A stretch of 32,114 nt of DNA, taken from the NCBI GenBank assembly GCA_042217585.1, contig JBDGSJ010000029.1, forward strand, positions 1-32,114. Direction: 5' to 3'. The notes under the pieces are model-generated. The model did no database searches and had not been told where the DNA came from. It was given only the letters and a program-made list of their open reading frames with translations. This document shows, one piece after another, positions 9,121 through 27,646 of the stretch (position 1 is the stretch's first letter; every line of letters begins with the position of its first letter). The DNA comes from Candidatus Nanohaloarchaea archaeon (GTDB taxonomy: Archaea; Nanohalarchaeota; Nanosalinia; Nanosalinales; Nanosalinaceae). Position numbers and translations under genes: made by a program.

Positions 9121-9221
9121 GTTACCTACACCCTGATTCAGTTAGAACTACTTTAAGGCTTTCCCGGCTCCTGAAACCTGGACAGAAATCTAGAGGAAAC
9201 AGAGCACCGGTTCCCAGATAT

Positions 9222-9278
9222 TCAGGCTTTTGAAAGGATCCAAAAACGTCCACCCTTCGTTGAAACCGCGGAAACCAT
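9222..9278 (-). CDS. trpS leader uORF MVSAVSTKGGRFWILSKA (18 aa)
   Basis: ATG 9278, TGA 9224-9222; Trp codon 9242-9240; +1 frame open to TAA 9124-9122, 1 nt before the trpS ATG. Confidence 0.8.
   Translation of the reverse strand: MVSAVSTKGGRFWILSKA
9240..9257 (-). promoter_or_regulatory. Putative +1 frameshift cassette, Trp sensor (AAG GGT GGA CGT TTT TGG)
   Basis: Conserved 18-mer in frame with the leader ATG; SD-like GGGTGG, spacer codon, TTT-T slip site, TGG. Confidence 0.8.
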
Positions 9279-9310
9279 CTTATCAGCTGTTTAATTATTA
9301 GGGAGAAAAT

Positions 9311-9327
9311 TTTAAATAGCTTAAAGC
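9311..9327 (-). promoter_or_regulatory. TATA/operator element shared with the trpB leader
   Basis: TTTAAATAGCTTAAAGC identical at 17409-17425; 33 nt upstream of the leader ATG. Confidence 0.65.
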
Positions 9328-9398
9328 GGTTCCGGAAGCAGGAAAACAGTCCAGATAACTGAAGCCTCAAGATAATAACTCTGGACGGGCTGGAAGCT

Positions 9399-10160
9399 TC
9401 AGGAATGCTTTTTCTTCTTTGACATGTAACCCATCCTCTCCTCGTATTCCTCTGTCGACATCAGCACAGGGTAGAAACTTTCCGGAGCCCTGAGTTCCTC
9501 TCCATCCTTCCTGGCGAAGACCTCGCCCTCGGCCACCTCGGCGAAGTTCTCGGCGACGAACTCGTATCCCTCTCCCTCAACCTCGTCATAGACCACGAAA
9601 AGATCGTGTCCTGATTCCTCGACATCTCCCTCTATCAGGTCCTCCGCCGCGAGGAACCTTCTCAGTATCTCGACGGCGTTCTCCTTCGCATCTTCAGAAC
9701 CCTTGAGACCGCATTCGACCGAGATGCCCTGGACGTGATCTATCATCCCTCCGGACTCGTAACTCATGTCGACAACTTTCTCCACTCCTGTCGCCTCCAC
9801 CAGCGGTATGGTCGAATCGTCGTACCGGGTGACTATAGCGAAGGGTTCCGGGTGCGAGAGGGTGGAGTGTAGGTCCAGGACCTTCATGCCCTCTATCTCG
9901 TCCATCATCCTGGCGGCAAGTTCCTGCTCGTGGAAAACACTTTCATCCGTCCCGGGAAAGGCGCGGTTCAGGTCTTCGTCCACGAACCTCTCACCTTTCT
10001 CGAGAGCCTCCTCGTTCGCGATTATGAACTTGACGGGTCCCAGGAACTCCTCGTTCTCCATGACCTCTTCCACGGCGTGCTTGCCGCAGAGCTCGTTCCC
10101 GTGGAGGCACGCAACCACGGCGTGGTCGGGCTCTCCCTCGCCAGCGATTTCTACTTTCAC
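9399..10160 (-). CDS. Succinylglutamate desuccinylase/aspartoacylase family (M14-like) hydrolase
   Basis: HGNE, DLNRAFPG, LDLHST, SVECG motifs. Confidence 0.88.
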   Translation of the reverse strand: MKVEIAGEGEPDHAVVACLHGNELCGKHAVEEVMENEEFLGPVKFIIANEEALEKGERFVDEDLNRAFPGTDESVFHEQELAARMMDEIEGMKVLDLHSTLSHPEPFAIVTRYDDSTIPLVEATGVEKVVDMSYESGGMIDHVQGISVECGLKGSEDAKENAVEILRRFLAAEDLIEGDVEESGHDLFVVYDEVEGEGYEFVAENFAEVAEGEVFARKDGEELRAPESFYPVLMSTEEYEERMGYMSKKKKHS

Positions 10161-10205
10161 TGTGTTATACTCTTCCTCGGAGTCCTTTAAGGTTTACCGA
10201 GACCG

Positions 10206-10964
10206 TCAAGATCCATCTGGAGAGCCACCCGCCAGTTCACTGGTTTTCTCCGTGATGTCACCTGACATTATCGCAGAGCCTATCAGACAGGCGTCCGCGC
10301 CCGACCCCATCATCCTCTCGACGTCCTCCCGGGTCTTCAGACCGCTCTCGGCGACCAGTGTCAGGTCCCCGGATGCTTTCGGCGCCAGTCTCTCCACGGT
10401 ACCGAGATCCACTTCAAGCTCTGAGAGGTCCCGGTTGTTGATGCCCAGTACCTCCGCATCGGTCTCCAGGGCTAACTCCAGCTCCTGCTCCGTGTGGACC
10501 TCGACCAGCGGCTGGAAACCCCTGTCCCTGGCCTCGCGGACCATCTCGCCGAGGTCGTCCACGAATCGGGCTATCAGCAAAACCATGTCTGCCTCCACCC
10601 TGTCCAGCTGGGAGGGCTCGAGAATGAAGTCCTTCCTCAGTACGGGGACGTCCACTGCATCCCTGACCCTCCGGAGCAGCCGGGCGGAACCTTTGAAGTG
10701 ATCCGGCTCAGTGAGGACGGAGATGGCGGCGGCCCCTCCCTCCACCATCTTCTCCGCGGCATGTACCAGGTCCTGCTCCTTCTCGTAGTCGGAGGTCGGA
10801 CTTGTCGGCTTGACCTCTGCGATGACAGGGTCCCTGCCGTCCATTCTGGCCTCCTCAAGTGCACCGCTGAGGTCGCGGGGATCGACGGAGACCCTTCCCT
10901 CCGGGGTGGACCGCTGGCGGGCGCTCCGGAGTATCTCCCGCACCCGCGGGTCGACATCGTCCAT
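10206..10964 (-). CDS. trpC: Indole-3-glycerol phosphate synthase
   Basis: [47 protein letters not shown]. Confidence 0.97.
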
Positions 10965-11566
10965 CAGTCCTCACCTCCCGGTTCTCTGCGGTTCCTGTGC
11001 TCCCGGGCTCTCTCGACGAAGTTCTCTATCATTTCGTGGCCGTGAGAGGTCAGGATGCTCTCCGGGTGGAACTCGACGCCTTCCATCGGTCTCTCGGTGT
11101 GGCGGATACCCATCACAAGTCCGTCCGCCTCCGAGACGACCTCGAACTCCTCAGGCGTCTCCGAGACTATCAGCGAGTGGTACCTTCCGACGGGGAAACC
11201 CTGCGGGAGACCGTCGTATATCTCCTCGCCGTCGTGTTCCAGCGACGAGGTCTTACCGTGGACCGGTTCCGGCGCTCTATCGACCTCTCCGCCGAAAGCC
11301 TCTGCCATCGCCTGGTGTCCGAGGCAGACCCCGAGCATCGGGGTGTCGGAGAACTCCCTGATTATCTCAAGCATGTTGCCGGTGTCGGATTTCTTCGCGG
11401 GATGGCCCGGCCCGGGCGAAAGGACTATCGCGTCCGGATCTATCTCCCGCACCTCCTCCACGGTTACAGTGTTCTTCTCCACGACGAGGTCCTCCTCTTC
11501 CAGGCTGATGTACTCGACGAGGTTCCAGGTGAAGGAGTCGAAGTTGTCGACCATCAGGATCTTCAT
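10964..11566 (-). CDS. trpG: Anthranilate synthase component II
   Basis: [34 protein letters not shown]. Confidence 0.97.
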
Positions 11567-13125
11567 TCTTCCACCTCCAGCTCTTCAAGGGTGTCCAGAA
11601 GCGCACCCATCTTCTTCTCGGTCTCCTCGAACTCCTTCTCCGGCTCCGAGTCCGCCACTATGCCCCCGCCGGCCTGGACCGTCATCAGTTTCCTGTCCCC
11701 GATATGCCTGAAGCTTGCGGTCCTTATCGTGATCGCGAGGTCGCAGTCGACGAGCTTACCTGACCCTGAACTGCTGGAGTTCCAGGAGTAGTATCCGACG
11801 CCCCCTCCGTAGACACCACGGGGGCTCTGCTCAAGCCGGTCTATTATCTTCATGGCGCGGATCTTGGGAGCCCCGGAGAGAGTGCCCGCGGGGAAGATAG
11901 AACGCGTGGCGTCGAAGGCGTCCTTTCCCTCCCTCAGCTGGCCCGTGACCGTGGACTCCATGTGCTGGACGTGGGAGTACTGGACCACGGACATCAGCTC
12001 CTCCAGCTCGATGGTCCCGGGCTTCGAGACCCGTCTCACGTCGTTCCTCCCCAGGTCCACCAGCATGGAGTGCTCCGCCAGCTCCTTCTCATCGGAGAGC
12101 ATCTGTCCGGCCAGTCTGCGGTCCTCCACTGCGTTTTCACCACGGCCCACCGTTCCGGCTATAGGGTTCGTGCTGAGTTTCCCGTCGTCCACACTCAGCA
12201 GCGTCTCCGGGCTGGAACCGGCGACGGAGAAACCGTCGAACTCCAGCAGGTACATGTATGGAGAGGGGTTCAGCTCCCTGAGCTTCTCGTAGTACTCCCT
12301 GACGTCTCCGCGGACCTCGATCTCATGCTTCCTGGAGAGAACTGCCTGGAATATGTCCCCCTCCAGGATGTGCTCCCCGGCTTCCTCGACCATCTCGGCG
12401 TGCGGCTCCCTGTCGCCCGAGCTGTGGTCCAGGATCCTGAACCCTTCCCTGAAATCCGGTTCATGGTCCTCGACCTTCCGCTCCACTTCATCAAGAAGTT
12501 CCTCTGCCTCCCGGTACGCCTCTCCCGGGTCCTCGTCTACCATAGGCAGCACCACGAGCCGGACCTCGTCCTCCCTGTGGTCGAACACTATGTTCCTCGT
12601 GGAGAGGACGAACCGGGCGTCAGGAGTCTCTGACTCGCTCTCCCGGTCTATCCAGAGGTCGTTGACGACGTCATAGGCCAGGAATCCGACAAGACCTCCG
12701 GAGAAGACCTGCCGCCCGGATTCCTCGAACCCGTCAGGCGTCCTGTCCGGGAACGCCTCCCTTATCACGTCCAGCGTATCCCTGTCGTCCTTTATGCGGC
12801 CGTCTGGACCTACGCCCGGGAGCTCGATGTCCTCACCTCCGAGCCGCCTGAACTCGACCTCCCGGTCGTTAACGGTCAGGACCGCTTCCGGGTCGAAACC
12901 TATGAACGAGTACCTGTTCCTGTCACCGGTGTCGCCGGCATCCGCCTGCTTGATCTCGGATATCTCCTTCTCTGCGCTCTCCAGCAGGAAGGAGTAGTCC
13001 GTGCTGAGCGCGGAGTAGACCTGGAGAGGGTCCTCATCGATATCCAGAGGTGCCTCGAGCCGCACGACTTTACCTGGACCGGCTCTATCCCTGAACTCCT
13101 CCTCGGAGAGGTCGAACTCAGTCAC
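11563..13125 (-). CDS. trpE: Anthranilate synthase component I
   Basis: FLLESAE, NPSPYMY, SSPETL, PIAGT, EHSMLVDLGRND, FPAGTLSGAPK. Confidence 0.97.
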   Translation of the reverse strand: MTEFDLSEEEFRDRAGPGKVVRLEAPLDIDEDPLQVYSALSTDYSFLLESAEKEISEIKQADAGDTGDRNRYSFIGFDPEAVLTVNDREVEFRRLGGEDIELPGVGPDGRIKDDRDTLDVIREAFPDRTPDGFEESGRQVFSGGLVGFLAYDVVNDLWIDRESESETPDARFVLSTRNIVFDHREDEVRLVVLPMVDEDPGEAYREAEELLDEVERKVEDHEPDFREGFRILDHSSGDREPHAEMVEEAGEHILEGDIFQAVLSRKHEIEVRGDVREYYEKLRELNPSPYMYLLEFDGFSVAGSSPETLLSVDDGKLSTNPIAGTVGRGENAVEDRRLAGQMLSDEKELAEHSMLVDLGRNDVRRVSKPGTIELEELMSVVQYSHVQHMESTVTGQLREGKDAFDATRSIFPAGTLSGAPKIRAMKIIDRLEQSPRGVYGGGVGYYSWNSSSSGSGKLVDCDLAITIRTASFRHIGDRKLMTVQAGGGIVADSEPEKEFEETEKKMGALLDTLEELEVEE

Positions 13126-13748
13126 GGCGAAACACCCCTCGCGGAGCTCACGAAATCCTCTATCTTCTGGCTCTGCTTCTTTCCGTCCTCCTCGACTCCT
13201 GAGGAGACATCGACGGCGTCCGGGGAGACATCCTCTATCGCCTCCCCGACGTTCTCCGGGGTCAGTCCCCCGGCAAGTATGATCGGGACCTCTGCCTTCC
13301 GTGCGATCTCCGCGGCCTCACCGCGGTCGAACTCCTCGCCCGTGCCGCCGCGGCCTTTCTCCCCCGAGGAATCCAGCAGAAGAGCGTCCACAACCTCCTC
13401 GAACCTCTCTGCCTCCCGGGTCGACCCCACCTTCCGGACCAGGTCCGCAGGGATCTGCTGGCGGAGCTCTCTCACCTGGCCGGGGTCAAGGCCGGAGTGA
13501 ATCTGCAGGACATCCACTCCTGTCTCGCGGTATATCTTTTCCGCCTCCGGAACATCCTCCGGCATCGTGACCGCCACCGTAGAGATGAAAGGTGGTGTGT
13601 AACCGGCGAGTTCACGTGTCTCACCGGCATCGAGGTCTCTGTGGGTGTCAACCGGGACCTCTGTCACGAATCCGACGGCGTCTGCATTGGCTTTCACGGC
13701 CATGGATACCTCTTCCCGGGTCTTCAGGCCGCAGATCTTCACCCTCAC
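13122..13748 (-). CDS. trpF: Phosphoribosylanthranilate isomerase
   Basis: VKICGL, LQIH, GGTG, ILAGGLTPENV, VDVSSGVE. Confidence 0.96.
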   Translation of the reverse strand: MRVKICGLKTREEVSMAVKANADAVGFVTEVPVDTHRDLDAGETRELAGYTPPFISTVAVTMPEDVPEAEKIYRETGVDVLQIHSGLDPGQVRELRQQIPADLVRKVGSTREAERFEEVVDALLLDSSGEKGRGGTGEEFDRGEAAEIARKAEVPIILAGGLTPENVGEAIEDVSPDAVDVSSGVEEDGKKQSQKIEDFVSSARGVSP

Positions 13749-14746
13749 TGGTACTCCCTCATCTGGTCCAGCTTCTCGACGGTTTTCCCCTCTCTTATGG
13801 ACCGGCGGGCTATCTCGATCCCCTCCTGTATCGAGTCGGCCCTGCCGGAGACGTAGAGAGCGGCCCCGGTGTTCGCGAGTACGATATCCCTCTTCGCGCC
13901 GGTTTCCTCGCCGGAAAGTATCCTGCGGAGGTGCTCTGCGTTCTCCTCCGGCGGACCTCCCTCTATCTCGCTGACAGGGCTGGTATCGAGCCCCAGGTCG
14001 CCAGGCGCGATGCTGTACCTCTCCACGTCTTCCCCTGTCACCTCTGCGACCTCTGTCTCTCCGTGAACGGCTATCTCGTCCAGCCCTGAGCCGTGGACCA
14101 CGAGCGCCTTCTCGACGTCCATCATCGAGATAGCGCCCGCGATCCTGTCGACCAGTTCGGGGCTGTAGACCCCCACTACCTGTCCATCGACGTCGGCGGG
14201 GTTTGTGAGCGGTCCGAGGATGTTGAATACCGTCTCGATTCCGAGGTCCTTTCTCGGTCCTATCACCCTCTCCATCGCCGGGTGGAACACGGGTGCAAGC
14301 TGGAAACCTATGCCTACCTCCTCTATCACCGTCTCCACTCTCCCGGGCTCCGCACCTATCTCTATCCCGAGCTTTTCCAGGACATCGGCGCTCCCGCTCT
14401 TCGATGAGACCGAGTAGTTGCCATGCTTGGCGACCGAGGCTCCTGAGGCAGCGGCCACGATGGCGCTCGTGGTGGAGACGTTTATGGTGTCGTATTCGTC
14501 CCCTCCCGTCCCGCAGGTGTCTATCAGGCGGTCCCTGTCCGGATCTATCTTCTCGGCCTCCTCCCTCATCTTCCGGGCGAATCCTGCGATCTCCGCGTCG
14601 GTCTCCCCCTTCTGGCTCAGGCCTGCGAGCAGCGCCCCTATCTCAGCGTCAGATGCCCCCTCGAATACGTATTCGAGGGTCTCACTCGCCTCTTTTCTCG
14701 TAAGGTTTTTCCCGTTTACAGCTTTCTCGATTGTAGTGCTTGTCAT
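13745..14746 (-). CDS. trpD: Anthranilate phosphoribosyltransferase
   Basis: DTCGTGGD, NVSTT, KHGN, SGSADVLE, FNILGPLTNPA, GLDE. Confidence 0.97.
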   Translation of the reverse strand: MTSTTIEKAVNGKNLTRKEASETLEYVFEGASDAEIGALLAGLSQKGETDAEIAGFARKMREEAEKIDPDRDRLIDTCGTGGDEYDTINVSTTSAIVAAASGASVAKHGNYSVSSKSGSADVLEKLGIEIGAEPGRVETVIEEVGIGFQLAPVFHPAMERVIGPRKDLGIETVFNILGPLTNPADVDGQVVGVYSPELVDRIAGAISMMDVEKALVVHGSGLDEIAVHGETEVAEVTGEDVERYSIAPGDLGLDTSPVSEIEGGPPEENAEHLRRILSGEETGAKRDIVLANTGAALYVSGRADSIQEGIEIARRSIREGKTVEKLDQMREYQ

Positions 14747-15330
14747 TCTGATTCACCTCTGATCCTGGTCTCATTCTCCTCAACGACCACGCTGAAGCCT
14801 GTCTTGGGTTCCAGACCCGTCTCTTCCTTCACTTTCTCGATCCCTCCGAACTGGGGTTTCTGGCAGATAGTGACGATATCGACGATCTCCGCGCCGATAT
14901 CTCTGAGTATCTCCACCAGGTTCACCAGGGTTGATCCTGTGGAGACCAGGTCCTCAACTATGATCACCCTGTCACCCGGTTCTATACCGTTGACGTAGAT
15001 CGATCCCTCGGTGTAGCCGTTACTCATCCCTGTGTCGTGCTCCCCCTCGAGCTCGGAAGGGTAGAACTTGGCAAGGGAGAACGGAACACCGGTGCGGACC
15101 GATATGTGGGAGACAAGGATACCTCCACGGTCCTCCTCCCCGAGTATGACATCGGCCTCCTCGAACCCTCCCTCCTGTATCAGGAAATCACAGGCCGACT
15201 CGAAGAGTTCAGGTGAACACGCCGGTATCTGGTCCGTCAGCGGGTTCACCACGTACTCGTACTCTCCGGTCTCCTGGACCGGCTGGTCCTTCCAGCTCTC
15301 CTTCACTTTCTCGAGAGGGTCAGAAGTCAT
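14743..15330 (-). CDS. Type I purine phosphoribosyltransferase (adenine/hypoxanthine PRT-like)
   Basis: YEYVVNPLTD, PRPP-binding VIIVEDLVSTGST; start set at ATG 15330 behind a GGTGA SD, overlapping the trpA end. Confidence 0.8.
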   Translation of the reverse strand: MTSDPLEKVKESWKDQPVQETGEYEYVVNPLTDQIPACSPELFESACDFLIQEGGFEEADVILGEEDRGGILVSHISVRTGVPFSLAKFYPSELEGEHDTGMSNGYTEGSIYVNGIEPGDRVIIVEDLVSTGSTLVNLVEILRDIGAEIVDIVTICQKPQFGGIEKVKEETGLEPKTGFSVVVEENETRIRGESE

Positions 15331-16087
15331 CTCCATCACCTTCCACGGCGGATGAGACCTTTTCAGCGAGTTCACGCATCCCCTCAGGGCCGTCCTCCCT
15401 GTACCGGTCGATGAGGGCGCTACCCATTATGACGCCGTCAGCCCCCGAATCGATCGCCGTTCTCGCCTGTTCAGGTCCTGATATCCCGAAACCTATGCAC
15501 CGGGGGACATCCATACCTTCTGTCTTCTCCACGAGTCCTCTTGACTTGGATGAGAACTCGTCTCTCGCCCCTGTAGTCCCTTTCACGGAGACAAGGTAGG
15601 CAAACCCTTCGGTCATCTCCCCTATCGTCTCTATCCTTTCCTCCGGCGTGTTCTGGGACACCAGGAAGATGTGGTCCAGCGGGCTGTCCACGTCGGAGAA
15701 CTCCTCCCTGAACTCGCCGGGAGGCATGTCGGGTATTATCAGTCCTTCCACCCCTGCGCTATCGGCGTCGTCAACGAACTCCTGGTACCCGTAGCTGTAG
15801 ACCGTGTTGGCATACGCCAGCAATACTATCGGCGTGTCCCCGAACTCGGAGCTTATCTCGAAAACTTCATCTACAGTAGTTCCGGCCTGGAGGGCGGCGT
15901 GGTCAGCCTCCTTTATCGTCGGTCCGTCAGCCATCGGATCGCTGAACGGAACGCCGAGTTCGACCACGTCCGCACCTGAATCGATGAGCGCTCTCACCAT
16001 CTCCTTTGACCTTTCGACATCGGGGTAACCGGCGACGGTGAACGGGACGAATGACGGGTCCTCGAGCGCTTCCTCAATCGAACTCAA
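15320..16087 (-). CDS. trpA: Tryptophan synthase alpha chain
   Basis: [47 protein letters not shown] start at 16087 behind GGAGGTG. Confidence 0.95.
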
Positions 16088-17237
16088 GGCCTTCCACCTC
16101 CGCAACCGTGTCCATGTCCTTGTCTCCCCTTCCGGAGAGATTGACGACTATGGTCTCGTGTTCATCCGCGATCTGTTTCGTGAGCGCGACAGCGTGGGAG
16201 GACTCCAGTGCCGGAATGATGCCCTCCTCCTCGCAGAGGTCCCGGAAAGCGTCCATCGCCTCCTGGTCCGTGACAGGGCTGTACTCGGCCCTTCCCAGGA
16301 CCTTCATCTCGGAGTGCTCGGGACCGACACCGGGATAGTCCAGTCCCGCGGACACCGACTCGGTCTCCTCAATGTTCCCCTCGTCGTCCTGGAGCAGGTA
16401 GGACCTGAATCCCTGGAAGATGCCTGGCTCTCCTTCGGAGAGCGTCGCGGCGTTTCCACCTTCCTCCGGTCCGCCGGCCTCTGCTCCGTAGAAATCAACC
16501 TCCGTATCCCTGAACTCGTGGAAGAGGCCGAGCGCGTTGCTTCCTCCTCCGACGCAGGCGACCAGGGCGTCAGGTAGCTCTCCCTCCTTCTCCATCACCT
16601 GTCTCCGGGTCTCCTCCCCTATCACGCTCTGGAAGTACCGGACCATCTCCGGGAACGGTTCGGGACCGACAACGGAGCCTATCAGGTAGTGGGTGTCGTC
16701 CGAGTTCGCCACGTAGTCCTGGATGGCTGCGGTGACGGCGTCCTTCAGCGTCTCGGACCCTTCCTCGACCGGGTTCACCTCGGCCCCGCATTTCTCGATC
16801 CTTAGCGCGTTCATCTTCTGCCTCTCGACGTCCTTGCGACCCATGTATATCTCGACGTCCATGTCGAGGTAGGCTCCGGCCATCGCCGTCGCTATACCGT
16901 GCTGACCGGCCCCTGTCTCTGCGATCAGGCGGTCCTTGCCCATCCTTTTCGCGAGCAGGGCCTGGCCCAGCGTGTTGTTTATCTTGTGGGCTCCGCCGTG
17001 TAGGAGGTCCTCACGTTTCAGGTATATCTCCGCACCGTATTTCTCGGAGAGGTTCTCCGCGTGGTAGAGGTTCGTCGGTCTTCCCGCGTACTCCTCCAGG
17101 TGGCGCCGGAAATCCTCTCTGAACTCCTCGCTGTCCTTCGCCTCCTCGAACTCCTCCTGGAGTTCCTGGAGGACCGGGACGAGAAGCTCCGGCACGAACC
17201 TCCCACCGAACCGGGATTCCGCCTTCCCGGAGGTCAT
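16074..17237 (-). CDS. trpB: Tryptophan synthase beta chain
   Basis: [15 protein letters not shown] (PLP lysine), [37 protein letters not shown]. Confidence 0.98.
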
Positions 17238-17288
17238 CTACCTGCACCTCCGGACCTATCAGAAAAAGCATTGAGGTTATTCCTGGAT

Positions 17289-17372
17289 TTAGAGAACAGT
17301 TCCAGTGCTGGAGGACCAAAAACGTCCACCTTTCCGATCCTCCGCAGCGTATGCGAAGCCTGAACTTTTCAT
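17289..17372 (-). CDS. trpB proximal leader uORF MKSSGFAYAAEDRKGGRFWSSSTGTVL (27 aa)
   Basis: ATG 17372 preceded by AGGTGG; TAA 17291-17289; Trp codon 17318-17316; +1 frame ends in TGA 17236-17234 overlapping the trpB ATG. Confidence 0.8.
   Translation of the reverse strand: MKSSGFAYAAEDRKGGRFWSSSTGTVL
17316..17333 (-). promoter_or_regulatory. Putative +1 frameshift cassette, Trp sensor (AAA GGT GGA CGT TTT TGG)
   Basis: Conserved cassette, in frame with the leader ATG. Confidence 0.8.
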
Positions 17373-17406
17373 GAGTCTTTCCACCTACTACCAGAGTACT
17401 CGGAAA

Positions 17407-17425
17407 GCTTTAAATAGCTTAAAGC
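17407..17425. promoter_or_regulatory. Palindromic TATA/operator GCTTTAA-N5-TTAAAGC
   Basis: Perfect 7-bp inverted repeat; 17 nt identical to 9311-9327. Confidence 0.65.
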
Positions 17426-17583
17426 CTCCGAAAACCCTTCAAATCGCCACAAATAAGCCTGGAGAGGATAAAAACGGTTGAAAATGGCTGAAATATCGGT
17501 GTCGGAGCCATGAGGATCTGGAGACGGAGCTTATTCCCATGTAGTTCAGAAGAGAACGGTCAGTTGACCGGGCCGGAGGAAGC

Positions 17584-17601
17584 CCAAAAACGTCCACCCT
17601 T
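17584..17601 (-). promoter_or_regulatory. Putative +1 frameshift cassette, Trp sensor, second of the tandem pair
   Basis: AAG GGT GGA CGT TTT TGG lying 58 nt (19 codons + 1) downstream of the first copy, so in its +1 frame. Confidence 0.78.
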
Positions 17602-17617
17602 CAGATAGAAGCGGCTC

Positions 17618-17668
17618 TCACAGAGAACTGAGTTCCCGGGTCCAAAAACGTCCACCCTTCTGAGCCAT
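17618..17668 (-). CDS. trp operon distal leader uORF MAQKGGRFWTRELSSL (16 aa)
   Basis: ATG 17668, about 24 nt downstream of TTTAAAA (17698-17692), leaderless spacing; TGA 17620-17618. Confidence 0.78.
   Translation of the reverse strand: MAQKGGRFWTRELSSL
17642..17659 (-). promoter_or_regulatory. Putative +1 frameshift cassette, Trp sensor, first of the tandem pair
   Basis: AAG GGT GGA CGT TTT TGG in frame with ATG 17668. Confidence 0.8.
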
Positions 17669-17703
17669 ACCGGTACTTACCGCCTCCACTGTTTTAAACC
17701 TTT

Positions 17704-18852
17704 TCAGGAATCCCACTCGAGCTGTATGTCCGGCTCACCGGAAGGTAAATCCTCCCTCTCTCCGGGACCGTAGACCTTCCTGAACCCCACCATCTCTTTC
17801 GTTTTATCCCTCACCTGACTTCTCTGACTGGAGGCCGCGAGGACTGCCGATCCCATTGCCGCCGTATCGAGGTTCTCGGGCTCCCGGACCTTCCTCCCGA
17901 ATACCCCGGCCCTGATTCTGTTCCAGTTCTCCACGCTTTCTCCGCCGCCCGCTGTTATCTTCTCTCCCGCCCCTACCTCATCGAGCTTCGTCTTCATAGA
18001 TACTGCCTCCTCTCTCACCTTTTCCCTGCCAGGCATGGAGTCCTGGAACGGCGATGGAGCGTAAAAGGACCTGAGCCCCAGTCCATCGTAGTAGAAATCC
18101 TTGTTGGCGTCCTCCCCAGGCTTCAGGACGCTTATCTTCCTTGTGGTGCCGAAATCGACGGCCGTATCCCCTTCCCCGGTGAGCCCACAGCCGATGGCAG
18201 CGCATATCTCGTCCCACGGGCAGCTCACCACCCGGGCGTCCTGAAGCCCGAACTCCGAGCCTATCTCTCCCTCTGCCATCGTTCTTTCAGTGAAGTCGAT
18301 GGACCGGGGGAACAGCGACGACCGCATCCCGTGCTCCTCGCACAGCCTCTCGAGGTCCCCGTCGGGGAAGTCAAAGGAATTCCTCCTGAACTCACCAGTG
18401 AAAAGGTAGAAGACGTAATCCCTGGCATCAATCATGTATTCGGCCTCCTCGAGAGCCCCGGAGAAATTCTGTCTGAGCCAGCTGTAGTTCTGGCACAGCA
18501 TCCTTCTCCCGCCCTTGAGCCCGCTGAAATCCTGCTCCAGTTCCCCGCTCCGGCGGTCCATATAGGCCAACACGGGCGGGCTGATGGATTCTCCAGAGGA
18601 GTCAACGGGGAAAAAGGCTCCTCCGAGGCCTGTCACCGCTATCCGGTCTATCCCGCTCAATCCCGGATCCTCCTCGATCTTCTTCAGGTTCCTTTTCAGG
18701 GTCCTCCGCCAGTCACTGACCCGGTGCTCGGCGTATCCGTCACGTGGAGCGTGTACAGGAAGTTTCTCTCTTACACCGAAGACCTGTTCTCCATCCTGGC
18801 GGAAGACAAGGACCTTGCAGCTGCTTGATCCCAGGTCTACGGAGAGTATCAT
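17704..18852 (-). CDS. FGGY-family carbohydrate kinase, C-terminal domain shortened
   Basis: SVDLGSSSCK, IAVTG, YMDRRS, DYVFYLFTG, AGGG...WNRIRAGVFG...AAMGSAVLA; only 382 aa. Confidence 0.8.
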   Translation of the reverse strand: MILSVDLGSSSCKVLVFRQDGEQVFGVREKLPVHAPRDGYAEHRVSDWRRTLKRNLKKIEEDPGLSGIDRIAVTGLGGAFFPVDSSGESISPPVLAYMDRRSGELEQDFSGLKGGRRMLCQNYSWLRQNFSGALEEAEYMIDARDYVFYLFTGEFRRNSFDFPDGDLERLCEEHGMRSSLFPRSIDFTERTMAEGEIGSEFGLQDARVVSCPWDEICAAIGCGLTGEGDTAVDFGTTRKISVLKPGEDANKDFYYDGLGLRSFYAPSPFQDSMPGREKVREEAVSMKTKLDEVGAGEKITAGGGESVENWNRIRAGVFGRKVREPENLDTAAMGSAVLAASSQRSQVRDKTKEMVGFRKVYGPGEREDLPSGEPDIQLEWDS

Positions 18853-18879
18853 CTCTCTGGGCAGGTCTTCTCCCGCAGA

Positions 18880-19530
18880 TTATTCAATTTCATCCCAGTA
18901 ATGGCCCGGTCTCTCAGTCGTGGTCACTTCCTGACCCCTCATGTCCTCGTAGATGATCTCCCTGTTCTGGTCCAGGTCCATGCTCCTGAGTTCGTCCATG
19001 GTGCTCAGGGCCGTGTCTGTCTCCGCCCTCTTGCCCACATCTATATTGTTACTCGCTGGTATCAGGTACTCCCAGTCATCGGTCAGCAGGTAACCTGTCT
19101 CCATCGCTCCCTCATACTTTTTCTCGTAACTCTCCGGCTCTTCATCCCTGAGAGGGCCCCTGAGAGCTACAGCCACCGGGTCGCCCTCAATCTCGCCGAG
19201 TATCCTCGCGGCTTCTTCCACACCTGCCTCGGTGAAGTGGATGTTCCGGGTCTCGCCCCGGCCGGTCTCCGACCTCTCGGCCGTCCTCACACTCATAACA
19301 GGTTCGCCGGGCTCATATACATCGAACTCTGCGGCGGAGATCTCCGGGACCGCCTCGTAACCCTGCCTCTCGCGGTCCGGTTCCAGACGCGTATCAAGGT
19401 CGAACCCGAGGTAGGCAAGGTCCTCGTCTCCTTCACGGAATACCGCATAGGAGCCGTCGTGACGGTCGAACTGTTCGGTTTGAAGCAGCGATCCAGAAAA
19501 GTCCCATCCTTCTCCAGCCTCGGAACTCAC
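18880..19530 (-). CDS. Hypothetical acidic protein
   Basis: 216-aa ORF with D/E-rich composition like neighbouring genes; GTG start; no motif recognised. Confidence 0.6.
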   Translation of the reverse strand: MSSEAGEGWDFSGSLLQTEQFDRHDGSYAVFREGDEDLAYLGFDLDTRLEPDRERQGYEAVPEISAAEFDVYEPGEPVMSVRTAERSETGRGETRNIHFTEAGVEEAARILGEIEGDPVAVALRGPLRDEEPESYEKKYEGAMETGYLLTDDWEYLIPASNNIDVGKRAETDTALSTMDELRSMDLDQNREIIYEDMRGQEVTTTERPGHYWDEIE

Positions 19531-20907: not shown

Positions 20908-20963
20908 GCGTGATCTCGAGGGCTCTCCCAAAATAGTTAACGGTAGGTGGCCCAACTGGGAGT

Positions 20964-22106: not shown

Positions 22107-22112
22107 GCAAGC

Positions 22113-22961
22113 ATGAAGGGAAAAGCCAGCGCACCCGGAGCACTTACCGTCATCAACGCCATATCAACTCTGAAGGGCTCCGCGTTCGCGATAGACCTCA
22201 GGACCACTGCAGAGGTCGAACTCGACCCCGGAAGGGATGAAGTCAGGGGCGAGATAGAGGGGAAGCCGGATGAGGACACCGAGATGATAGAGAGATGCGT
22301 CGAACTGGTCCTGGACCGTTTCGACGTGGACGCAGGTGGAGAAGTCAGGACCTCGGGCGAGATACCGATGGCGAGCGGCCTGAAATCCAGTAGCGCCGCC
22401 GCGAACGCCGCGGTCCTCGCCACACTGGAGGCTATAGATGAGGAGATGGACCGCAGGGAGGCGACCCTGATAGGAGTGCAGGCATCCAGGGACGCCGGCG
22501 TAACCGTGACAGGGGCGCTGGACGACGCCTCCTCCTCGATGCTCGGCGGCGTGGTCGTCACCGACAACTCGGAGGACGAGGTCCTCCACCACGAGGAGTT
22601 CGAGAGGTACTGCGCGGTCTACATACCGGACGAATCAGTCAGGAGCGTGGACACCGACGTGGACCGGTCGAAGACCATCTCCCCGGTAATAGAGGAGGTC
22701 TTCGAGATCGCGATGGACGGAAGGTACGCCCGGGCGATGACCATCAACGGACTGGCCTACTGCGCAGCACTGGATTTCGACACCGGTCCGGTCATCGAGG
22801 CCCTGGAACACTGCGAGGGGGCAAGCCTGAGCGGGACCGGTCCCTCGTACGGCGCGATAGGTACCGAGGAAGAAGTTGAGAGTGTCCTCGACGAATGGGA
22901 GGACCTACCCGGTGAGACGATGAAACTTAGGACCGACAACACCGGAGGAAGGAAGGAGTGA
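22113..22961 (+). CDS. aroK: Archaeal shikimate kinase (GHMP family)
   Basis: IPMASGLKSSSAAANA, VTVTGALDDA, SLSGTGPS; between aroC and aroE. Confidence 0.94.
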   Translation: MKGKASAPGALTVINAISTLKGSAFAIDLRTTAEVELDPGRDEVRGEIEGKPDEDTEMIERCVELVLDRFDVDAGGEVRTSGEIPMASGLKSSSAAANAAVLATLEAIDEEMDRREATLIGVQASRDAGVTVTGALDDASSSMLGGVVVTDNSEDEVLHHEEFERYCAVYIPDESVRSVDTDVDRSKTISPVIEEVFEIAMDGRYARAMTINGLAYCAALDFDTGPVIEALEHCEGASLSGTGPSYGAIGTEEEVESVLDEWEDLPGETMKLRTDNTGGRKE

Positions 22962-23776
22962 AGACCTTCGGACTGATCGGATACCCCGTCGAGCACTCGC
23001 TCTCCCCCGAGATGCAGGAGACAGGGCTGGAGGAGCTCGGGATAAACGGACGGTACTGCCTCTACCCTGTCGAGGACGGGGACGTGGAGCAGGCGCTGAA
23101 GGGAGCCTTCGCCCTTGGCATAGACGGCCTGAACGTCACGATACCACACAAGCAGGCGGTCGCCGAGTCAGAGATGGTTGAGACCTCCGAACTTGCGGAG
23201 AGGATAGGAGCCGTGAACACAGTGGAATTCACGGATAACGGTATCAGGGGATACAACACCGATGCCCGCGGCGCGAGAAGGGCCCTGGAGAGACACGAAG
23301 TCGATATAGAGGGCTCGGAGGCCGTCGTGGTCGGGGCGGGAGGTGCCTCGCGCGCCATCTCCTTCATGCTGGCTGACAGCGGGGCGGAAGTATCGATCGC
23401 GAACAGGACCTATGGGAAGGCCGAGGAACTCGCGGAAAACGTCTCCAGGATGGGAGACGCGTCAGGACACCCTCTCGAAGATCTCGAGGAGCTCGTGGGA
23501 AAGGCCGACATCCTGGTGAACGCGACAAGCGTCGGGATGGAGGAGGACAGGTCAGTGGTCCCCGCGGAGCACCTCCACTCTGACCTCACGGTCCTCGACG
23601 CGGTCTACAGACCTCTCGAAACGAAACTGCTGCGTGACGCAGAGAGGAAGGGAGCGAAGACCGTCGACGGCGCATGGATGCTGCTTTACCAGGGAACGGA
23701 AGCTTTCGAGATATGGACCGGGAGGGAGGCGCCGGTCGACGCGATGAACCAGGCCCTGAGGGACGAACTCGAGTAA
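22958..23776 (+). CDS. aroE: Shikimate dehydrogenase
   Basis: HSLSP, NVTIPHK, GAVNT, NTD, GAGGASRA, NRT, MLLYQG. Confidence 0.96.
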   Translation: MKTFGLIGYPVEHSLSPEMQETGLEELGINGRYCLYPVEDGDVEQALKGAFALGIDGLNVTIPHKQAVAESEMVETSELAERIGAVNTVEFTDNGIRGYNTDARGARRALERHEVDIEGSEAVVVGAGGASRAISFMLADSGAEVSIANRTYGKAEELAENVSRMGDASGHPLEDLEELVGKADILVNATSVGMEEDRSVVPAEHLHSDLTVLDAVYRPLETKLLRDAERKGAKTVDGAWMLLYQGTEAFEIWTGREAPVDAMNQALRDELE

Positions 23777-23777
23777 C

Positions 23778-24953
23778 TCAGGAGTACTTCCGCAGTGCTT
23801 CGACCGCCGCGAGGTCCTCGCCGCTCATGAACCTGACGAAGGCTCCTCCCGCGATGGAGACGTGGCTGAAGTCCTCCAGCTCGTAGCCGTACCTCTGGAC
23901 CAGCGAGGAGGTGTGTCCCCCGCCGAGGACCGCGTAAGAGTCGGACTCCGCGATCGCCGAGACCACGGCACGGGTCCCGTCCTCATGGCCCTCGTCGAAG
24001 GCTCCCACCGGCCCCTTCATGACCACCGAGTCGGCCTCCTCTATCTCCCTGACGAACTTCTCCTGCGTCGTCTCGCCTATGTCCCAGACGGTCTCGTCCT
24101 CCGGGACCTCTCCCACCTCGTGGTTTCCGGAGCCGGACCTCACGTCCTCTGGAAGGGTTATCTTGTCGCCGTGTTCATCCAGGAGCTCTCTCAGCTCCTT
24201 TTCTTTCGAGTCGAAGCCGCGTTCTCTTATCCACTCTGTCTTCTCGCCGAGCTCGTTTCCCTGTATCATCAGGGCGAGTTCGCCGGGTATACCGCCCATG
24301 AGAACCTGGTCGACCGTGTCTATCATCTCCTCCAGCATACCTACGATGTCCGAGGGTTTCTCCCCGCCGACCACGAGTAGTCCGCTGTCGAACTCGTCCC
24401 GGACCTTCCTGCAGTTCTCGAGCTCGCTCTCCATTATCGGACCGGCGTAGCAGTCGAGGTCCCTGTTGAACCCGACTATCGAGCCGTGGGACCTGTGGGC
24501 CGCGGAAAAGGCGTCGTTGACGTAAAGATCGAAGTATCTCTTGAGGTTGTTCACGAAGTAGTCCTGTGCGTGTCTCTCGGGACTGATGTTCTGGAGCTCC
24601 TCGGAGAGGAACCTCATGTTCTCCAGCAGGACCACGTCGCCGTCCTCCATGGACGCTATGGACTCCCCGACCTCGGAGCCGAAGAAGCATCTCACGAATC
24701 CGACTTCACGGTCCATGTGATCCGACATCAGCCCGGAGTGCTGCTCCAGCGAGAGGAAGTCATCCCTCGCCGGCCTTCCCTGGTGCGCCAGCACCACGGT
24801 CCGTGCGCCTCTCTCGCTGAGCTCCCGGACCGTCTCCATATACCTCCTGAACCTGACGGTGGGCTGCGGTTCCCCGTCTTCTATCGGGAGATTTAGGTCT
24901 GTTCTCAGAAGCACCGTCTCGCTCTCCACGTCGACGTCCTCCATGCTGTTCAT
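23778..24953 (-). CDS. pgk: Phosphoglycerate kinase
   Basis: LRTDLNLP, HQGRP, LLENMRF, VNDAFSAAHR, LGGGHT, HVSIAGGA. Confidence 0.96.
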   Translation of the reverse strand: MNSMEDVDVESETVLLRTDLNLPIEDGEPQPTVRFRRYMETVRELSERGARTVVLAHQGRPARDDFLSLEQHSGLMSDHMDREVGFVRCFFGSEVGESIASMEDGDVVLLENMRFLSEELQNISPERHAQDYFVNNLKRYFDLYVNDAFSAAHRSHGSIVGFNRDLDCYAGPIMESELENCRKVRDEFDSGLLVVGGEKPSDIVGMLEEMIDTVDQVLMGGIPGELALMIQGNELGEKTEWIRERGFDSKEKELRELLDEHGDKITLPEDVRSGSGNHEVGEVPEDETVWDIGETTQEKFVREIEEADSVVMKGPVGAFDEGHEDGTRAVVSAIAESDSYAVLGGGHTSSLVQRYGYELEDFSHVSIAGGAFVRFMSGEDLAAVEALRKYS

Positions 24954-25021
24954 CCTTGGAACCTCGTAATACGGAGTATTACCGCGCTTAGTTTTTAATT
25001 TAACTGGCCCGAATCCGACCC

Positions 25022-25765
25022 ATGACCAGTTTAAAAACCGGCAGATATAAACCCCGTCTGGTATACTTCCTGATCTTCCTGAACCTCGTGGTCTTCGCCG
25101 CCCAGATAGCTCTCCCGCTCGAGACAGTGAAGCAGTACGCGTTCAGCATGGAGAACCTGCTCCAGAACCCTGTCTCGGTCCTGAGCTACGGCTTCATGCA
25201 CGCCGGACCTGGCCACATAGCCGGGAACATGGTGGCGCTGTTCCTCCAGGGACGGATACTTGAGAGGTCCACCGGAAAGGGGAAACTCGCGCTGACCTAC
25301 GCCGCCGGGACCATCGCAGGAGGCCTTGTCTGGCTCCCGCTGAACCCCGAGGCCTCGCTGGTCGGTGCGTCCGCCGCGACCTCCGCGATACTCGGTGCGA
25401 ACGTCCTCGCATCGCCGGACCGCTCCCTGCTCGAGGAGGTCCCTCTCCTGAGAAGGATACCTCTTCCCGGGATAAGGAACTTCTTCTCAGTCGCGGTCTG
25501 GGCCGCGCTGATGCTGATATTCAACATACAGGCCACGGTGAAGGGTGCGGGCGATGTGGCGACCATCGCGCACCTCGGAGGATTCGCCGCGGGAGCGATG
25601 CTGATATGGACCACAGGCGAAACTGACAGCAGGAAAGGCGCGGTCCTCACACCGGTCTTCGCGCTACTGATGGCAGGAATAGCGCTTTCCGCAGCGGGCT
25701 CCACCGTCTACTGGGCTCTACTTCTGCTGTTCGTTGTGCTGGCACTCAGCGTGAGGAGGCTCTGA
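25022..25765 (+). CDS. Rhomboid family intramembrane serine protease
   Basis: FMHAGPGHIAGNM, GASA catalytic Ser, AHLGG catalytic His; hydrophobic. Confidence 0.9.
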   Translation: MTSLKTGRYKPRLVYFLIFLNLVVFAAQIALPLETVKQYAFSMENLLQNPVSVLSYGFMHAGPGHIAGNMVALFLQGRILERSTGKGKLALTYAAGTIAGGLVWLPLNPEASLVGASAATSAILGANVLASPDRSLLEEVPLLRRIPLPGIRNFFSVAVWAALMLIFNIQATVKGAGDVATIAHLGGFAAGAMLIWTTGETDSRKGAVLTPVFALLMAGIALSAAGSTVYWALLLLFVVLALSVRRL

Positions 25766-25813
25766 GGGGAAGTGTATTTAAGACTGGACTGTGAACTCTC
25801 CGGTGTGGTACCC

Positions 25814-25867
25814 ATGACAACCAAGGGTGGATGTTTTGGATCTGCCGCAAGGCAGGACTCCGAATGA
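25814..25867 (+). CDS. glyS leader uORF MTTKGGCFGSAARQDSE (17 aa)
   Basis: TATTTAA 25775-25781 upstream; ATG 25814; Gly codon 25838-25840 after TTT; +1 frame ends in TGA 25920-25922 overlapping the glyS ATG. Confidence 0.75.
   Translation: MTTKGGCFGSAARQDSE
25823..25840 (+). promoter_or_regulatory. Putative +1 frameshift cassette, Gly sensor (AAG GGT GGA TGT TTT GGA)
   Basis: Same cassette as in the trp leaders, with the sensor codon changed from TGG to GGA. Confidence 0.72.
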
Positions 25868-25918
25868 CGCATTTTACGTTCTCAAAACCTTTGATACAGC
25901 CGAGGAAGTGACCTCGAT

Positions 25919-27646
25919 ATGAGCGAGTCAGAGGAACTGGACGAGATAGCAAGGAGAAGAGGTTTCTACTCCCAGACCGCGGAATCCTACGGCGGTGTCG
26001 CCGGCTTCTACACCTTCGGTCCTGAAGGCGCCGAACTGAAGAGGAACATAGAGAACTCGTGGCGCGACTGGTTCAGGATACGTGAGGGCCACAGGGAGAT
26101 AGAGGCGCCGACGATCATGCCGGAACCGATCTTCGAGTCCTCCGGCCACCTCGACGGCTTCGACGACATGATAATCGAATGCCCCGAGTGCGGTACGAGC
26201 TCGAGGGCGGACCACCTCGTCGAGGACAACACCGATATCGAGGAGGCGGAGAGCTTTTCCACGGACCAGATAGAGGCGCTCATCGAGGATCACGACCTCT
26301 GCTGCCCGACCTGCGGACACGACCTGACAGGTATCGAGGTGGACGACTTCAACCTGATGTTCAGCACGAACATCGGTCCAGGCGACTCCTCGCCCGGCTA
26401 CCTCAGGCCCGAGACCGCACAAGGCATCTTCGCCGAGTTCCCGAGGTTCAAGGAGTACGCCCGCGAACAGCTGCCCTTCGCGATCACACAGCTCGGAAAG
26501 GCGTACAGGAACGAGATAAGCCCGCGGAACGCGCTGGTCCGGGTCCGCGAGTTCACCCAGGCGGAGCTGGAGCACTTCATAGATCCTGAGAGGGATGAAC
26601 CGGAGCTCGAAAAGGTCGAGGACATCGAGCTGAAGCTCTATCCCGCCGAGAAACAGGGAGAGGGCGAATACGTCAGGGCGACGGTCCGCGAGGCGGTCGA
26701 GAACGGTATAATCGAGTCAGAGTGGATCGCCTACTACCTCGGACTGGCGAAGCAGTGGTACATGAGCATAGGCGTCGACATGGACCGATTCAGGTTCAGG
26801 CAGCACCTGGAGGGCGAGAGAGCCCATTACGCCACGGACTGCTGGGACGCCGAGAGCGAGGTCGACGGCGACTGGATAGAGATAGCCGGTTTCGCCTACA
26901 GGGGCTGCTACGACCTGAAGAAGCACCACGAGAACTCCGAGGACGACTTCAGGATATTCAGACAGTACGACGAGCCGAAGACCGTCGAGGATAAGACCGT
27001 CAACCCTGACATGGGATACCTCGGCCCCGAGTACGGAGAGAAAGCCGGCGACATAGCAGAAAGCCTTGAAAAACTCGCAGAGGACGAACCCGAGGCGTTC
27101 GACTCCGATCACGTGACCGTGACGGTCGGCGACGAGGAGTTCGAGATACCGTCCGGAAAGGCGAACTTCAGCGTCGAGGAGAAGGAGAAGAACGGCGAGA
27201 AGTTCCTTCCGCACGTCGTCGAGCCCTCCTTCGGTATCGGCAGGACTGTCTACACGGTCCTCGCCCACCGGATGGAGGAAGAGGAGATAGAAGACGGTGA
27301 GAGGACCGTGATGAGGTTCTCACCGGAGATAGCGCCGACGGAGGTCGCCGTCCTTCCCCTGATGGACAAGGAGGGCATGGGAGAGAAGGCAGAGGAACTG
27401 GTCCGGCGGCTCAGGGCCGAGAGCTTCTCCGTCAGCGCTGATACCTCGGGAAGCATCGGTAGACGTTACCGGAGGCAGGACGAGGTCGGTACACCTGTCT
27501 GCGTCACCGTCGACTACGAGACGCTTGAGGAGGGCACCGTCACTCTGAGGGACCGGGACTCCACGGAGCAGGCCCGGGTGGATGTCGAGGACCTCGAGAG
27601 AAGCATCATAAGGTTCCTCTCCGGAACGGAGCTTGAGGACCTGTGA
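25919..27646 (+). CDS. glyS: Glycyl-tRNA synthetase (archaeal/eukaryotic alpha2 type)
   Basis: LRPETAQGIF, YRNEISPR, RVREFTQAELE, AHYA, VVEPSFGIGR, SIGRRYRRQDEVG. Confidence 0.97.
   Translation: MSESEELDEIARRRGFYSQTAESYGGVAGFYTFGPEGAELKRNIENSWRDWFRIREGHREIEAPTIMPEPIFESSGHLDGFDDMIIECPECGTSSRADHLVEDNTDIEEAESFSTDQIEALIEDHDLCCPTCGHDLTGIEVDDFNLMFSTNIGPGDSSPGYLRPETAQGIFAEFPRFKEYAREQLPFAITQLGKAYRNEISPRNALVRVREFTQAELEHFIDPERDEPELEKVEDIELKLYPAEKQGEGEYVRATVREAVENGIIESEWIAYYLGLAKQWYMSIGVDMDRFRFRQHLEGERAHYATDCWDAESEVDGDWIEIAGFAYRGCYDLKKHHENSEDDFRIFRQYDEPKTVEDKTVNPDMGYLGPEYGEKAGDIAESLEKLAEDEPEAFDSDHVTVTVGDEEFEIPSGKANFSVEEKEKNGEKFLPHVVEPSFGIGRTVYTVLAHRMEEEEIEDGERTVMRFSPEIAPTEVAVLPLMDKEGMGEKAEELVRRLRAESFSVSADTSGSIGRRYRRQDEVGTPVCVTVDYETLEEGTVTLRDRDSTEQARVDVEDLERSIIRFLSGTELEDL

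Follow-up and report, generated by a model that had tools for sequence, protein, structure and literature searches.

In the bacterial gene prfB, a Shine-Dalgarno (SD)-like element, a UAU spacer, a P-site codon of the NUU type and a UGA codon in the A site follow one another. A role as both sensor and effector is stated for prfB in passages of the standard review of recoding from 2016 (PMC5009743). The same passages describe +1 shifts at a starved sense codon in the A site, with re-pairing of the P-site tRNA, for the Ty1 sequence CUU_AGG_C and for amino-acid starvation of Escherichia coli; of a natural, starvation-specific use of such hungry codons they state that "no examples are known", and they judge the frameshifting at pheL to be incidental (PMC5009743). 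For archaea, passages of another paper (PMC8211752) name a single cellular -1 frameshift, besides a few from viruses and one suggested for a Mg-chelatase. Here, a stretch of 32,114 nucleotides (nt) from a Candidatus Nanohaloarchaea archaeon was analyzed (GenBank assembly GCA_042217585.1, contig JBDGSJ010000029.1, positions 1 to 32,114 of the forward strand; hereafter, the window). In this DNA, short leader open reading frames (ORFs), called mini-genes below, precede trpS, the trp operon and glyS and carry copies of a short element with the consensus R-GGUGGA-YRY-KUU-NNN, for which the first-pass annotation had proposed a function as amino-acid-sensing +1 frameshift site. The family to which these copies belong probably consists of amino-acid-specific +1 frameshift sensors, in which the ribosome would change frame at a hungry codon (NNN, the sensor codon) and be coupled to the start of the downstream gene. 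With a little less confidence, the comparative data also point to a phylum-wide regulon of single codons, built on a portable 18-nt cassette that exchange of one codon would make specific for any amino acid, and through which a lack of charged tRNA would lead to a +1 shift and turn on the cognate synthetase, biosynthetic operon or salvage gene.

The cassette has the register of prfB, as had been claimed for it: an SD-like element, a 3-nt spacer, a slip codon and an A-site codon in the same layout. In both cases the SD-like element can pair with the 16S rRNA tail, the spacer is pyrimidine-purine-pyrimidine (UAU in prfB; CGY, UGY, CAC or UAY here), the NUU-type P-site codon is read through G-U wobble and the useful product needs the +1 frame. 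The analogy extends to the downstream synthetase, which charges the tRNA that reads the sensor codon. In contrast to prfB, the A-site codon is a sense codon and interchangeable, the cassette lies in a separate mini-gene whose output would mostly be re-initiation downstream and not a fusion, and it occurs in archaea, which have no release factor 2. An empty A site and a slippery P-site tRNA as trigger would be shared with Ty1 and with hungry codons of the Gallant type; however, in Ty1 a rare tRNA fixes the proportion of shifts, with no sensing of one amino acid, and the Gallant-type starvation cases were laboratory-made. At ermC, which the proposed output resembles, a share of the ribosomes also shifts frame within a leader ORF upon ketolide induction, but the trigger is a ribosome-bound drug and not an empty A site, and neither codon specificity nor an SD-like cassette nor an overlap of stop and start in the new frame has been described there.

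Two further systems share the task. The attenuators trpL, pheL and hisL read tRNA charging through cognate codons of a leader ORF and control biosynthetic operons and some synthetases; they use runs of codons and terminator/antiterminator hairpins and act on transcription, whereas the nanohaloarchaeal leaders have one codon per cassette, no conserved hairpins and a conserved +1 frame. T-boxes serve the same regulon (synthetases and genes for amino-acid biosynthesis or uptake) and their specificity is likewise set by one triplet, but they bind uncharged tRNA through a structured untranslated leader, whereas a ribosome in the course of translation would read the triplet of the cassette. In the literature searched, neither a T-box nor a sensor of the leader-peptide type was found for archaea, and to our knowledge little is known of the ways in which these organisms monitor tRNA charging for single amino acids. 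A full-text literature search, whose coverage left out most subscription journals, returned no report of such a cassette system.

When the window was scanned with the 15-mer pattern AARGGTGGAYGTTTT, five matches were obtained against 0.06 expected, a number reached in 0 of 100 shuffles. Four lay on the minus strand (9257-9243, 17333-17319, 17601-17587 and 17659-17645) and one on the plus strand (25823-25837). All were intergenic and coincided with the five copies listed by the first-pass annotation, which had also described the rest of the arrangement correctly: the sensor codon was TGG in the four copies before trpS or trpB and GGA in the one before glyS, and in four copies an ATG stood in frame, 9-39 nt ahead of the AAR codon and behind a TATA-like box. 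The copy at 17601 had no ATG of its own and lay 58 nt (3n+1) past the copy at 17659, hence in the +1 frame of that copy. Upon translation, the zero frame of the copies terminated 5-8 codons past the sensor codon. The +1 frame, read from the sensor codon, was open up to the next gene in the three gene-proximal copies, and the identities of these genes (trpS, trpB with the trp operon, and glyS) were confirmed by family searches.

The trpS leader lies on the minus strand. A TATA-like box at 9310..9325, the putative promoter of the leader transcript, precedes a zero-frame mini-gene of 18 codons (9222..9278; ATG at 9278, TGA at 9224-9222), whose cassette AAG GGT GGA CGT TTT TGG (9240..9257) consists of the SD-like element, the 3-nt spacer, the slip codon TTT and the sensor TGG at 9242-9240. 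The +1 stretch (9122..9241) runs for 39 codons to a TAA (9124-9122) one base ahead of the trpS ATG at 9120, giving TAA-C-ATG at 9124-9118; trpS itself, encoding tryptophan--tRNA ligase, occupies 8020..9120 (NF008925, E = 1e-126). On the same strand, the region upstream of trpB begins with a mini-gene at 17618..17668 (ATG at 17668, cassette 17659-17642, zero-frame TGA at 17620-17618), followed by the cassette without ATG at 17584..17601, whose zero frame stops at 17562-17560 and whose +1 frame stops at 17441-17439. Next come a TATA-like box at 17408..17424, near-identical to that of the trpS leader and likewise a putative promoter, and the trpB-proximal mini-gene (17289..17372; ATG at 17372, TAA at 17291-17289) with its cassette at 17333-17316. 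From there, 27 codons of the +1 frame (17234..17317) lead to a TGA that overlaps the trpB ATG (ATGA, 17237-17234). The operon thus preceded comprises eight genes, trpB-trpA-(purine phosphoribosyltransferase-like)-trpD-trpF-trpE-trpG-trpC (10206..17237, minus strand).

On the plus strand, the glyS leader starts with a TATA-like box at 25775..25782, which may be its promoter, and a zero-frame mini-gene at 25814..25867 (ATG at 25814, TGA at 25865-25867). The cassette (25823-25840) has the spacer TGT, the slip codon TTT and the sensor GGA (25838-25840), directly 3' of which a hairpin CTGCC-GCAA-GGCAG was found (25842..25855). The +1 stretch of 27 codons (25839..25922) contains the proximal promoter-like box of glyS (CAAAACC plus a T/A-rich segment, 25882..25898) and ends with a TGA overlapping the glyS ATG (ATGA, 25919-25922). 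The gene, glycine--tRNA ligase, extends over 25919..27646 (TIGR00389, E = 1e-194).

The distribution of the cassette was surveyed in relatives with the slightly degenerate pattern ARGGTGGAYGYKTT, which fixes most of the motif. It gave 257 matches in 58 of the 70 genomes of the phylum Nanohaloarchaeota, while the reversed pattern used as control gave 6. Within the families, 47 of 49 (f1), 8 of 8 (f4), 2 of 10 (f3), 0 of 1 (f2) and 0 of 1 (f5) genomes were positive, and in the order sample it was present in 33 of 41. In 151 haloarchaeal genomes, from the class that holds a Halobacteriaceae metagenome-assembled genome, 19 matches stood against 15 for the control, which is chance level. The matches in relatives defined 124 loci with 144 distinct sites. 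Downstream ORFs were named through NCBIfam and Pfam, and through BLAST against ORFs so named, and whichever ATG, GTG or TTG came first in an ORF counted as the downstream start. Only sites with an in-frame ATG and a zero-frame ORF of at most 40 codons entered the profiles of 151 and 136 sites used below. The tie between motif and amino-acid genes that had been suggested from the window was seen phylum-wide. The genome of the window (0.98 Mb in 38 contigs) held further copies in short ATG-started ORFs.

Four sites were judged to be chance matches within genes. Two are in the genome of the window (C3:30270 and C13:30636); they are parts of longer ORFs and no ATG stands upstream of them. The other two are L020 (CCT) and L121 (CGT), and L121 shows a copy of the Dph2-like context found in the genome of the window. 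The chance matches stay in the count of 144 and were filtered out of the two profiles. In the regions upstream of trpS at ten loci of relatives (L048-L057), the cassette was present in 0 of 10 and the neighbouring gene abuts; because of this absence, the trpS leader is regarded as patchy across lineages. The genomes with loci L051, L053 and L055 contained 6, 6 and 9 cassettes, respectively.

The sensor codon matched the downstream gene. Wherever one of the first three ORFs downstream encodes a synthetase, at 82 sites in all, the codon was cognate to that enzyme, with 0 mismatches (cysS 6, glyS 11, hisS 6, pheS 1, serS 16, thrS 16, trpS 12, tyrS 9 and valS 5), and the expectation that NNN tracks the amino acid was further borne out at proC/B-proA, ilvA and trpB/C/D. 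In the genome of the window, ACC preceded thrS, GTA valS, TCT serS, and CCG a fused proC/proB followed by proA. TGG occurred twice (C8 1900-5140, L014) before an operon for a protein of unknown function, a GNAT acetyltransferase and a MenC-type enzyme; CAC preceded a small AbrB/MazE-domain ORF, two more ORFs and then hisS (L017); CTG preceded a class-I glutamine amidotransferase, and GTA together with CTG in one mini-gene preceded an ORF of 152 amino acids (aa) with no known family (C19:45700-46170). In relatives, TGG was found before trpB, trpC, trpD and GNAT-deacylase-trpS operons, and ATC or ATT before ilvA at 3 of 11 Ile sites. Across the family, sensors for at least 13 amino acids were seen, and the sensor was a sense codon in all 151 sites. 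Since synonymous sensors occur (ACC/ACA, TCC/TCT, TAC/TAT, CAC/CAT, ATC/ATT, TGT/TGC and CTG/CTA), the triplet is taken to be read as a zero-frame codon.

The behavior of the three frames was compared at those 62 sites at which a synthetase comes first among the downstream ORFs. A stop within -15 to +20 nt of the start was present in the +1 frame at 56 of the 62 (16 exactly ATGA), in the -1 frame at 5 and in the zero frame at none, the latter always ending 24 nt or more ahead of it. In the interval that runs from the sensor to 15 nt ahead of the start, stop codons numbered 6 in 1781 codons of the +1 frame, 83 in 1773 of the -1 frame and 144 in 1813 of the zero frame. The position of the +1 stop was therefore conserved beside the start in orthologous leaders, as had been foreseen, and the +1 frame is, by these counts, under selection. 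The open stretch was maintained even across the proximal promoter of the gene itself. At 15 sites the +1 frame had no stop and ran on into a long ORF, and several sets of orthologous fused products were conserved as protein from the first residues past the cassette, namely a 126-aa protein before trpB, 118-124-aa proteins before trpS and GNAT proteins of 228-247 aa.

The SD-like part of the element, R-GGUGG, was complementary to the 16S 3' end GGAUCACCUCCA in all four complete relatives examined; relatives were used since no 16S gene was found in the assembly of the window. Six pairs can form (R.U, G-C, G-C, U-A, G-C and G.U), in agreement with the pairing suggested for GGGUGG. The variable positions R and Y each face U or G, so both variants still pair. 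The distance between SD-like element and P-site codon was exactly one codon (3 nt), a spacing that the main survey pattern itself fixes. The regions upstream of thrS in 30 genomes were the one survey made free of the motif. A strict cassette was present in 17, a variant in 5 and none in 8. All 22 leaders had the 3-nt spacer, with no length variant, and TTT was kept in 22 of 22, GGT in 21 and GGA in 20, while the spacer codon was CGY, TGY, CAC, TAT or TAC (Arg, Cys, His, Tyr), always YRY.

The P-site codon depended on the base that follows it. Among the 151 sites, a sensor starting with C was preceded by GTT in 26 and by TTT in 2; before A and G only TTT occurred (30 and 23 sites, GTT 0), and before T both were used (TTT 57, GTT 13). 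Such a dependence would be expected of a four-base slip window KUU-N. Avoidance of UUU_C would spare a constitutive, perfect slip of tRNA-Phe onto its Watson-Crick codon. The slip codon UUU of the original proposal has to be replaced by GUU for sensors that start with C. In the assembly, which is incomplete, tRNA-Phe(GAA) was present, and 18 tRNAs and no tRNA-Val were found.

Close pairs of cassettes, at most 100 nt apart, obeyed rules of phase, the second copies being whole cassettes 21-97 nt away. The four pairs in which both sensors read one amino acid (W-W of the window, S-S, and H-H twice) were all spaced 3n+1 and had no ATG at the second copy, so that the second sensor would be read only by ribosomes shifted at the first. 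All five pairs for different amino acids (V+L three times, once in the genome of the window and twice in relatives, and I+L twice) shared one zero frame, so that a shift at either sensor would enter the same +1 frame. Serial 3n+1 pairs would act in an AND-like and in-frame pairs in an OR-like manner. Eleven W-W pairs in loci of relatives lay 240-335 nt apart in any phase, each copy with its own ATG, and these are separate modules.

The mini-genes have promoters of a recognizable register. In 136 aligned sites, A was found at -36 to -33, T at -32 to -27 and A at -25/-24 relative to the mini-gene ATG, the register expected for leaderless transcripts; the same register, weaker, was seen before 516 long ORFs of the genome of the window. 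Of the 144 sites of relatives, 136 or more have an ATG ahead of them that is in frame and shows promoter spacing. At 53 of 136 sites the ATG stands directly before the AAR codon, giving the peptide Met-Lys-Gly-Gly-Arg-Phe-X. A second box was observed between cassette and gene in thrS, serS, glyS and valS leaders (CAAAACC, 3-8 nt, a TTAAATAA-like segment and about 22 nt to the ATG), and several thrS genes without a leader hold the CAAAACC box at the same distance from the ATG. The CAAAACC-TTAAATAA box is probably the BRE/TATA (B recognition element and TATA box) promoter of this lineage for leaderless mRNAs and the basal promoter of the gene. As the genes keep their own promoter inside the leader, the leader would act as a further level of control, and expression would have another route besides it.

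With respect to RNA structure, a simple fold test of the 40 nt 3' of the sensor gave a mean z of -0.21 over 151 sites, no more structured than shuffles, and no conserved pairing or flanking helices were found around the motif in leader alignments. Three leaders were folded: the SD and start of trpB lay in a 9-bp hairpin (unpaired probability 0.13-0.29), the SD-like sequence of glyS in a 5-bp hairpin, and trpS was not clearly structured. When 12 glyS leaders were inspected by eye, most (L092, L098, L111, L114, L134 and L139 among others) showed a hairpin of varying sequence immediately 3' of the GGA sensor; it was not seen in other gene families.

From the cassette, the mini-genes with their promoters, the codon-gene match, the open +1 frame and the complementarity to rRNA, all of them read in the DNA, the following course of events can be proposed, in which the frameshift, scarcity as its trigger, and coupling or transcript shielding as its output would be the added steps. 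The promoter would give a transcript starting at or near the ATG of the mini-gene, and the ribosome would reach the cassette a few codons in. With KUU (UUU-Phe or GUU-Val) in the P site and NNN, coding for the amino acid handled by the downstream gene, in the A site, GGUGG would pair with the 16S tail three bases behind the P-site codon. When the charged tRNA is plentiful, NNN would be decoded and the ribosome would terminate in frame after 3-28 further codons, 24 nt or more short of the gene. When it is scarce, the A site would remain empty and the +1 shift would take place. The shifted ribosome would read an open stretch, with no other meaning, across the proximal promoter region, terminate on or beside the start (often at ATGA) and re-initiate; at trpB and glyS it would thereby open the hairpins at the start. 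A second possible output is that the shifted ribosome keeps the transcript covered and shields it from termination, and at some genes the +1 frame would simply continue into the protein as a trans-frame product. The P-site dependence on the next base, the phase rules of the pairs and the fused +1 proteins, some of which occur solely as extensions of the +1 frame, all fit such a change of frame, and the predictions that the first-pass annotation had offered for testing at the level of sequence came out in its favour throughout, which lends the proposal support.

Three other explanations were weighed against frame change. Leaders that only stall the ribosome, so that a pause at the sensor codon alters folding, termination or stability with no change of frame, would have the hallmark of ribosome-mediated attenuation, a mini-gene with a cognate codon, and could draw on the local hairpins at the trpB and glyS starts; the SD-like pause site might assist the stall. 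An effect at the level of the peptide is possible too, given that GGT follows a Lys or Gln codon in 140 of the 151 sites, with A as the second base of that codon, two positions before GGT, in 95%. This explanation nevertheless leaves the stretch free of stops in the +1 frame alone (6 against 83 and 144) without a reason, and equally the ATGA overlaps, the serial 3n+1 copies without ATG and the fused +1 proteins; no conserved alternative hairpins were found, and there is a single regulatory codon instead of a run. Moreover, the Gly and Phe codons do not vary even where a synonymous base would do, whereas the spacer encodes different amino acids, and the constraint therefore falls mainly on the RNA and not on the peptide. 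Stalling on its own is accordingly considered improbable. An untranslated RNA or DNA element, either T-box-like (NNN pairing with the anticodon and UGGA with the tRNA 3' end) or the operator of a regulator, is far less probable still and would be very surprising. NNN does behave as a specifier codon, and the AGGGUGG core resembles the T-box consensus; on the other hand, no Rfam family reached its gathering score in the window, in-frame ATGs with promoter spacing are the rule, no conserved helices flank the motif, the base facing the tRNA discriminator is invariant, and the open +1 frame and the phase rules would be meaningless without translation.

The third explanation, two overlapping mini-genes without recoding, starts from the GUG in the conserved core (GG-GUG-GA), which is in the +1 frame. 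The +1 ORF would start there and be modulated by the ATG mini-gene, and the GUG would deliver ribosomes to the main start or be the true N-terminus of a protein. The 15 fused ORFs can formally begin at this codon, and in the 401-aa TrpD of L059, as in L093, it is the sole start-type codon in the first 90 codons. However, the GUG is only 6-8 nt behind the P site of a ribosome that pauses at the sensor and would be hidden beneath it, so that scarcity would lower the expression of synthetase or biosynthetic genes, the wrong sign for homeostasis. The GUG also overlaps the SD-like bases instead of following them, and a start there offers no reason why KUU is followed directly by a cognate zero-frame codon, or why the choice of KUU varies with the base after it. 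Serial 3n+1 copies would need a change of frame in order to matter, and a thrS leader without the GTG of the motif (GGC GGA) still has its +1 stop at ATGA, although this is one case only. A start at the GUG is thus, like stalling alone, held to be unlikely, and +1 frameshifting at the hungry codon remains the preferred explanation.

Several observations speak against that explanation or limit it. Leu sensors precede a class-I glutamine amidotransferase that has no evident link to the amino acid; an AAA (Lys) sensor precedes endonuclease V in one relative (L146, genome G015), again with no evident link to lysine; and Ile, Leu, Phe and Trp sensors stand before ORFs with weak or no Pfam/NCBIfam match. 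Re-pairing after a +1 slip is perfect for UUU_U only (57 of 151 sites), and a mismatch at one position would result at UUU_A/G (53), GUU_C (26) and GUU_U (13). The strong preference for A two positions before GGT is given no explanation by rRNA pairing, and a nascent peptide [K/Q]-G-G-x-[F/V] may contribute. The family has no general downstream stimulatory structure. In the serial W-W pair of the window (17439-17668, minus strand), the +1 frame ends 69 nt before the ATG of the next mini-gene, just ahead of its TATA-like box, with no evident output of this pair. Immediately ahead of their start, the regulated genes hold a promoter of their own, in many cases together with an SD-like sequence, and can probably be expressed without the leader. 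Finally, related genomes are not independent samples; the nine kinds of synthetase, each with its own codon, are independent cases. As to the endonuclease V site, its cassette is well formed, and only 5 nt separate the +1 stop from the first start codon downstream.

If the proposal is true, these leaders would be the first case in nature of a sensor based on hungry-codon frameshifting, and an archaeal counterpart of T-boxes and attenuators, with the specificity written in one codon. The sensor codon would also serve as a built-in amino-acid label for dozens of proteins of unknown family, and the cassette is possibly small and modular enough for trial as a synthetic amino-acid reporter. Even without frameshifting, the codon-specific leader family would remain an undescribed regulatory element.

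Additional observations were made on individual leaders. The +1 frame of the His leader (L017; C38 2890-3123, minus strand) encodes a 78-codon AbrB/MazE-domain protein (PF04014, E = 3e-9), which may be a regulator made only upon frame change; its ORF ends at TGATG, the start of the next ORF, and hisS lies 1.9 kb further on. Leaders with a Trp sensor were found before operons in which a GNAT gene is combined with a MenC-type (N-acylamino-acid racemase-like) enzyme or with a deacylase of the DapE/ArgE type, often followed by trpS (L014 in the genome of the window; L101, L131, L135, L141 and L105 in relatives), and these operons may be a salvage route for N-acylated tryptophan. Leu and Val+Leu sensors precede conserved ORFs without a Pfam or NCBIfam family, of 578-626 aa (L113, L116, L126), of about 400 aa (L107, L122, L152) and of 130-155 aa (L038, L043, L030 and C19:45700-46170 of the genome of the window); the sensors suggest that these proteins serve branched-chain amino acids. 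In the proC/B leader (L015, C17 about 18620-18760), a run of N is flanked on both sides by the same sequence of about 55 nt and represents an assembly gap.

As regards the remaining content of the window, a tRNA scan found none, and the palindrome AGGCCT showed no enrichment (14 occurrences against 9.5 expected). The purine phosphoribosyltransferase-like gene (14743-15375) sits between trpA and trpD. Nanohaloarchaea are usually described as dependent on their hosts for amino acids, and the presence in a genome of about 1 Mb of a complete trp operon together with proC/B-proA (C17, about 14000-18900) was unexpected for this lineage.

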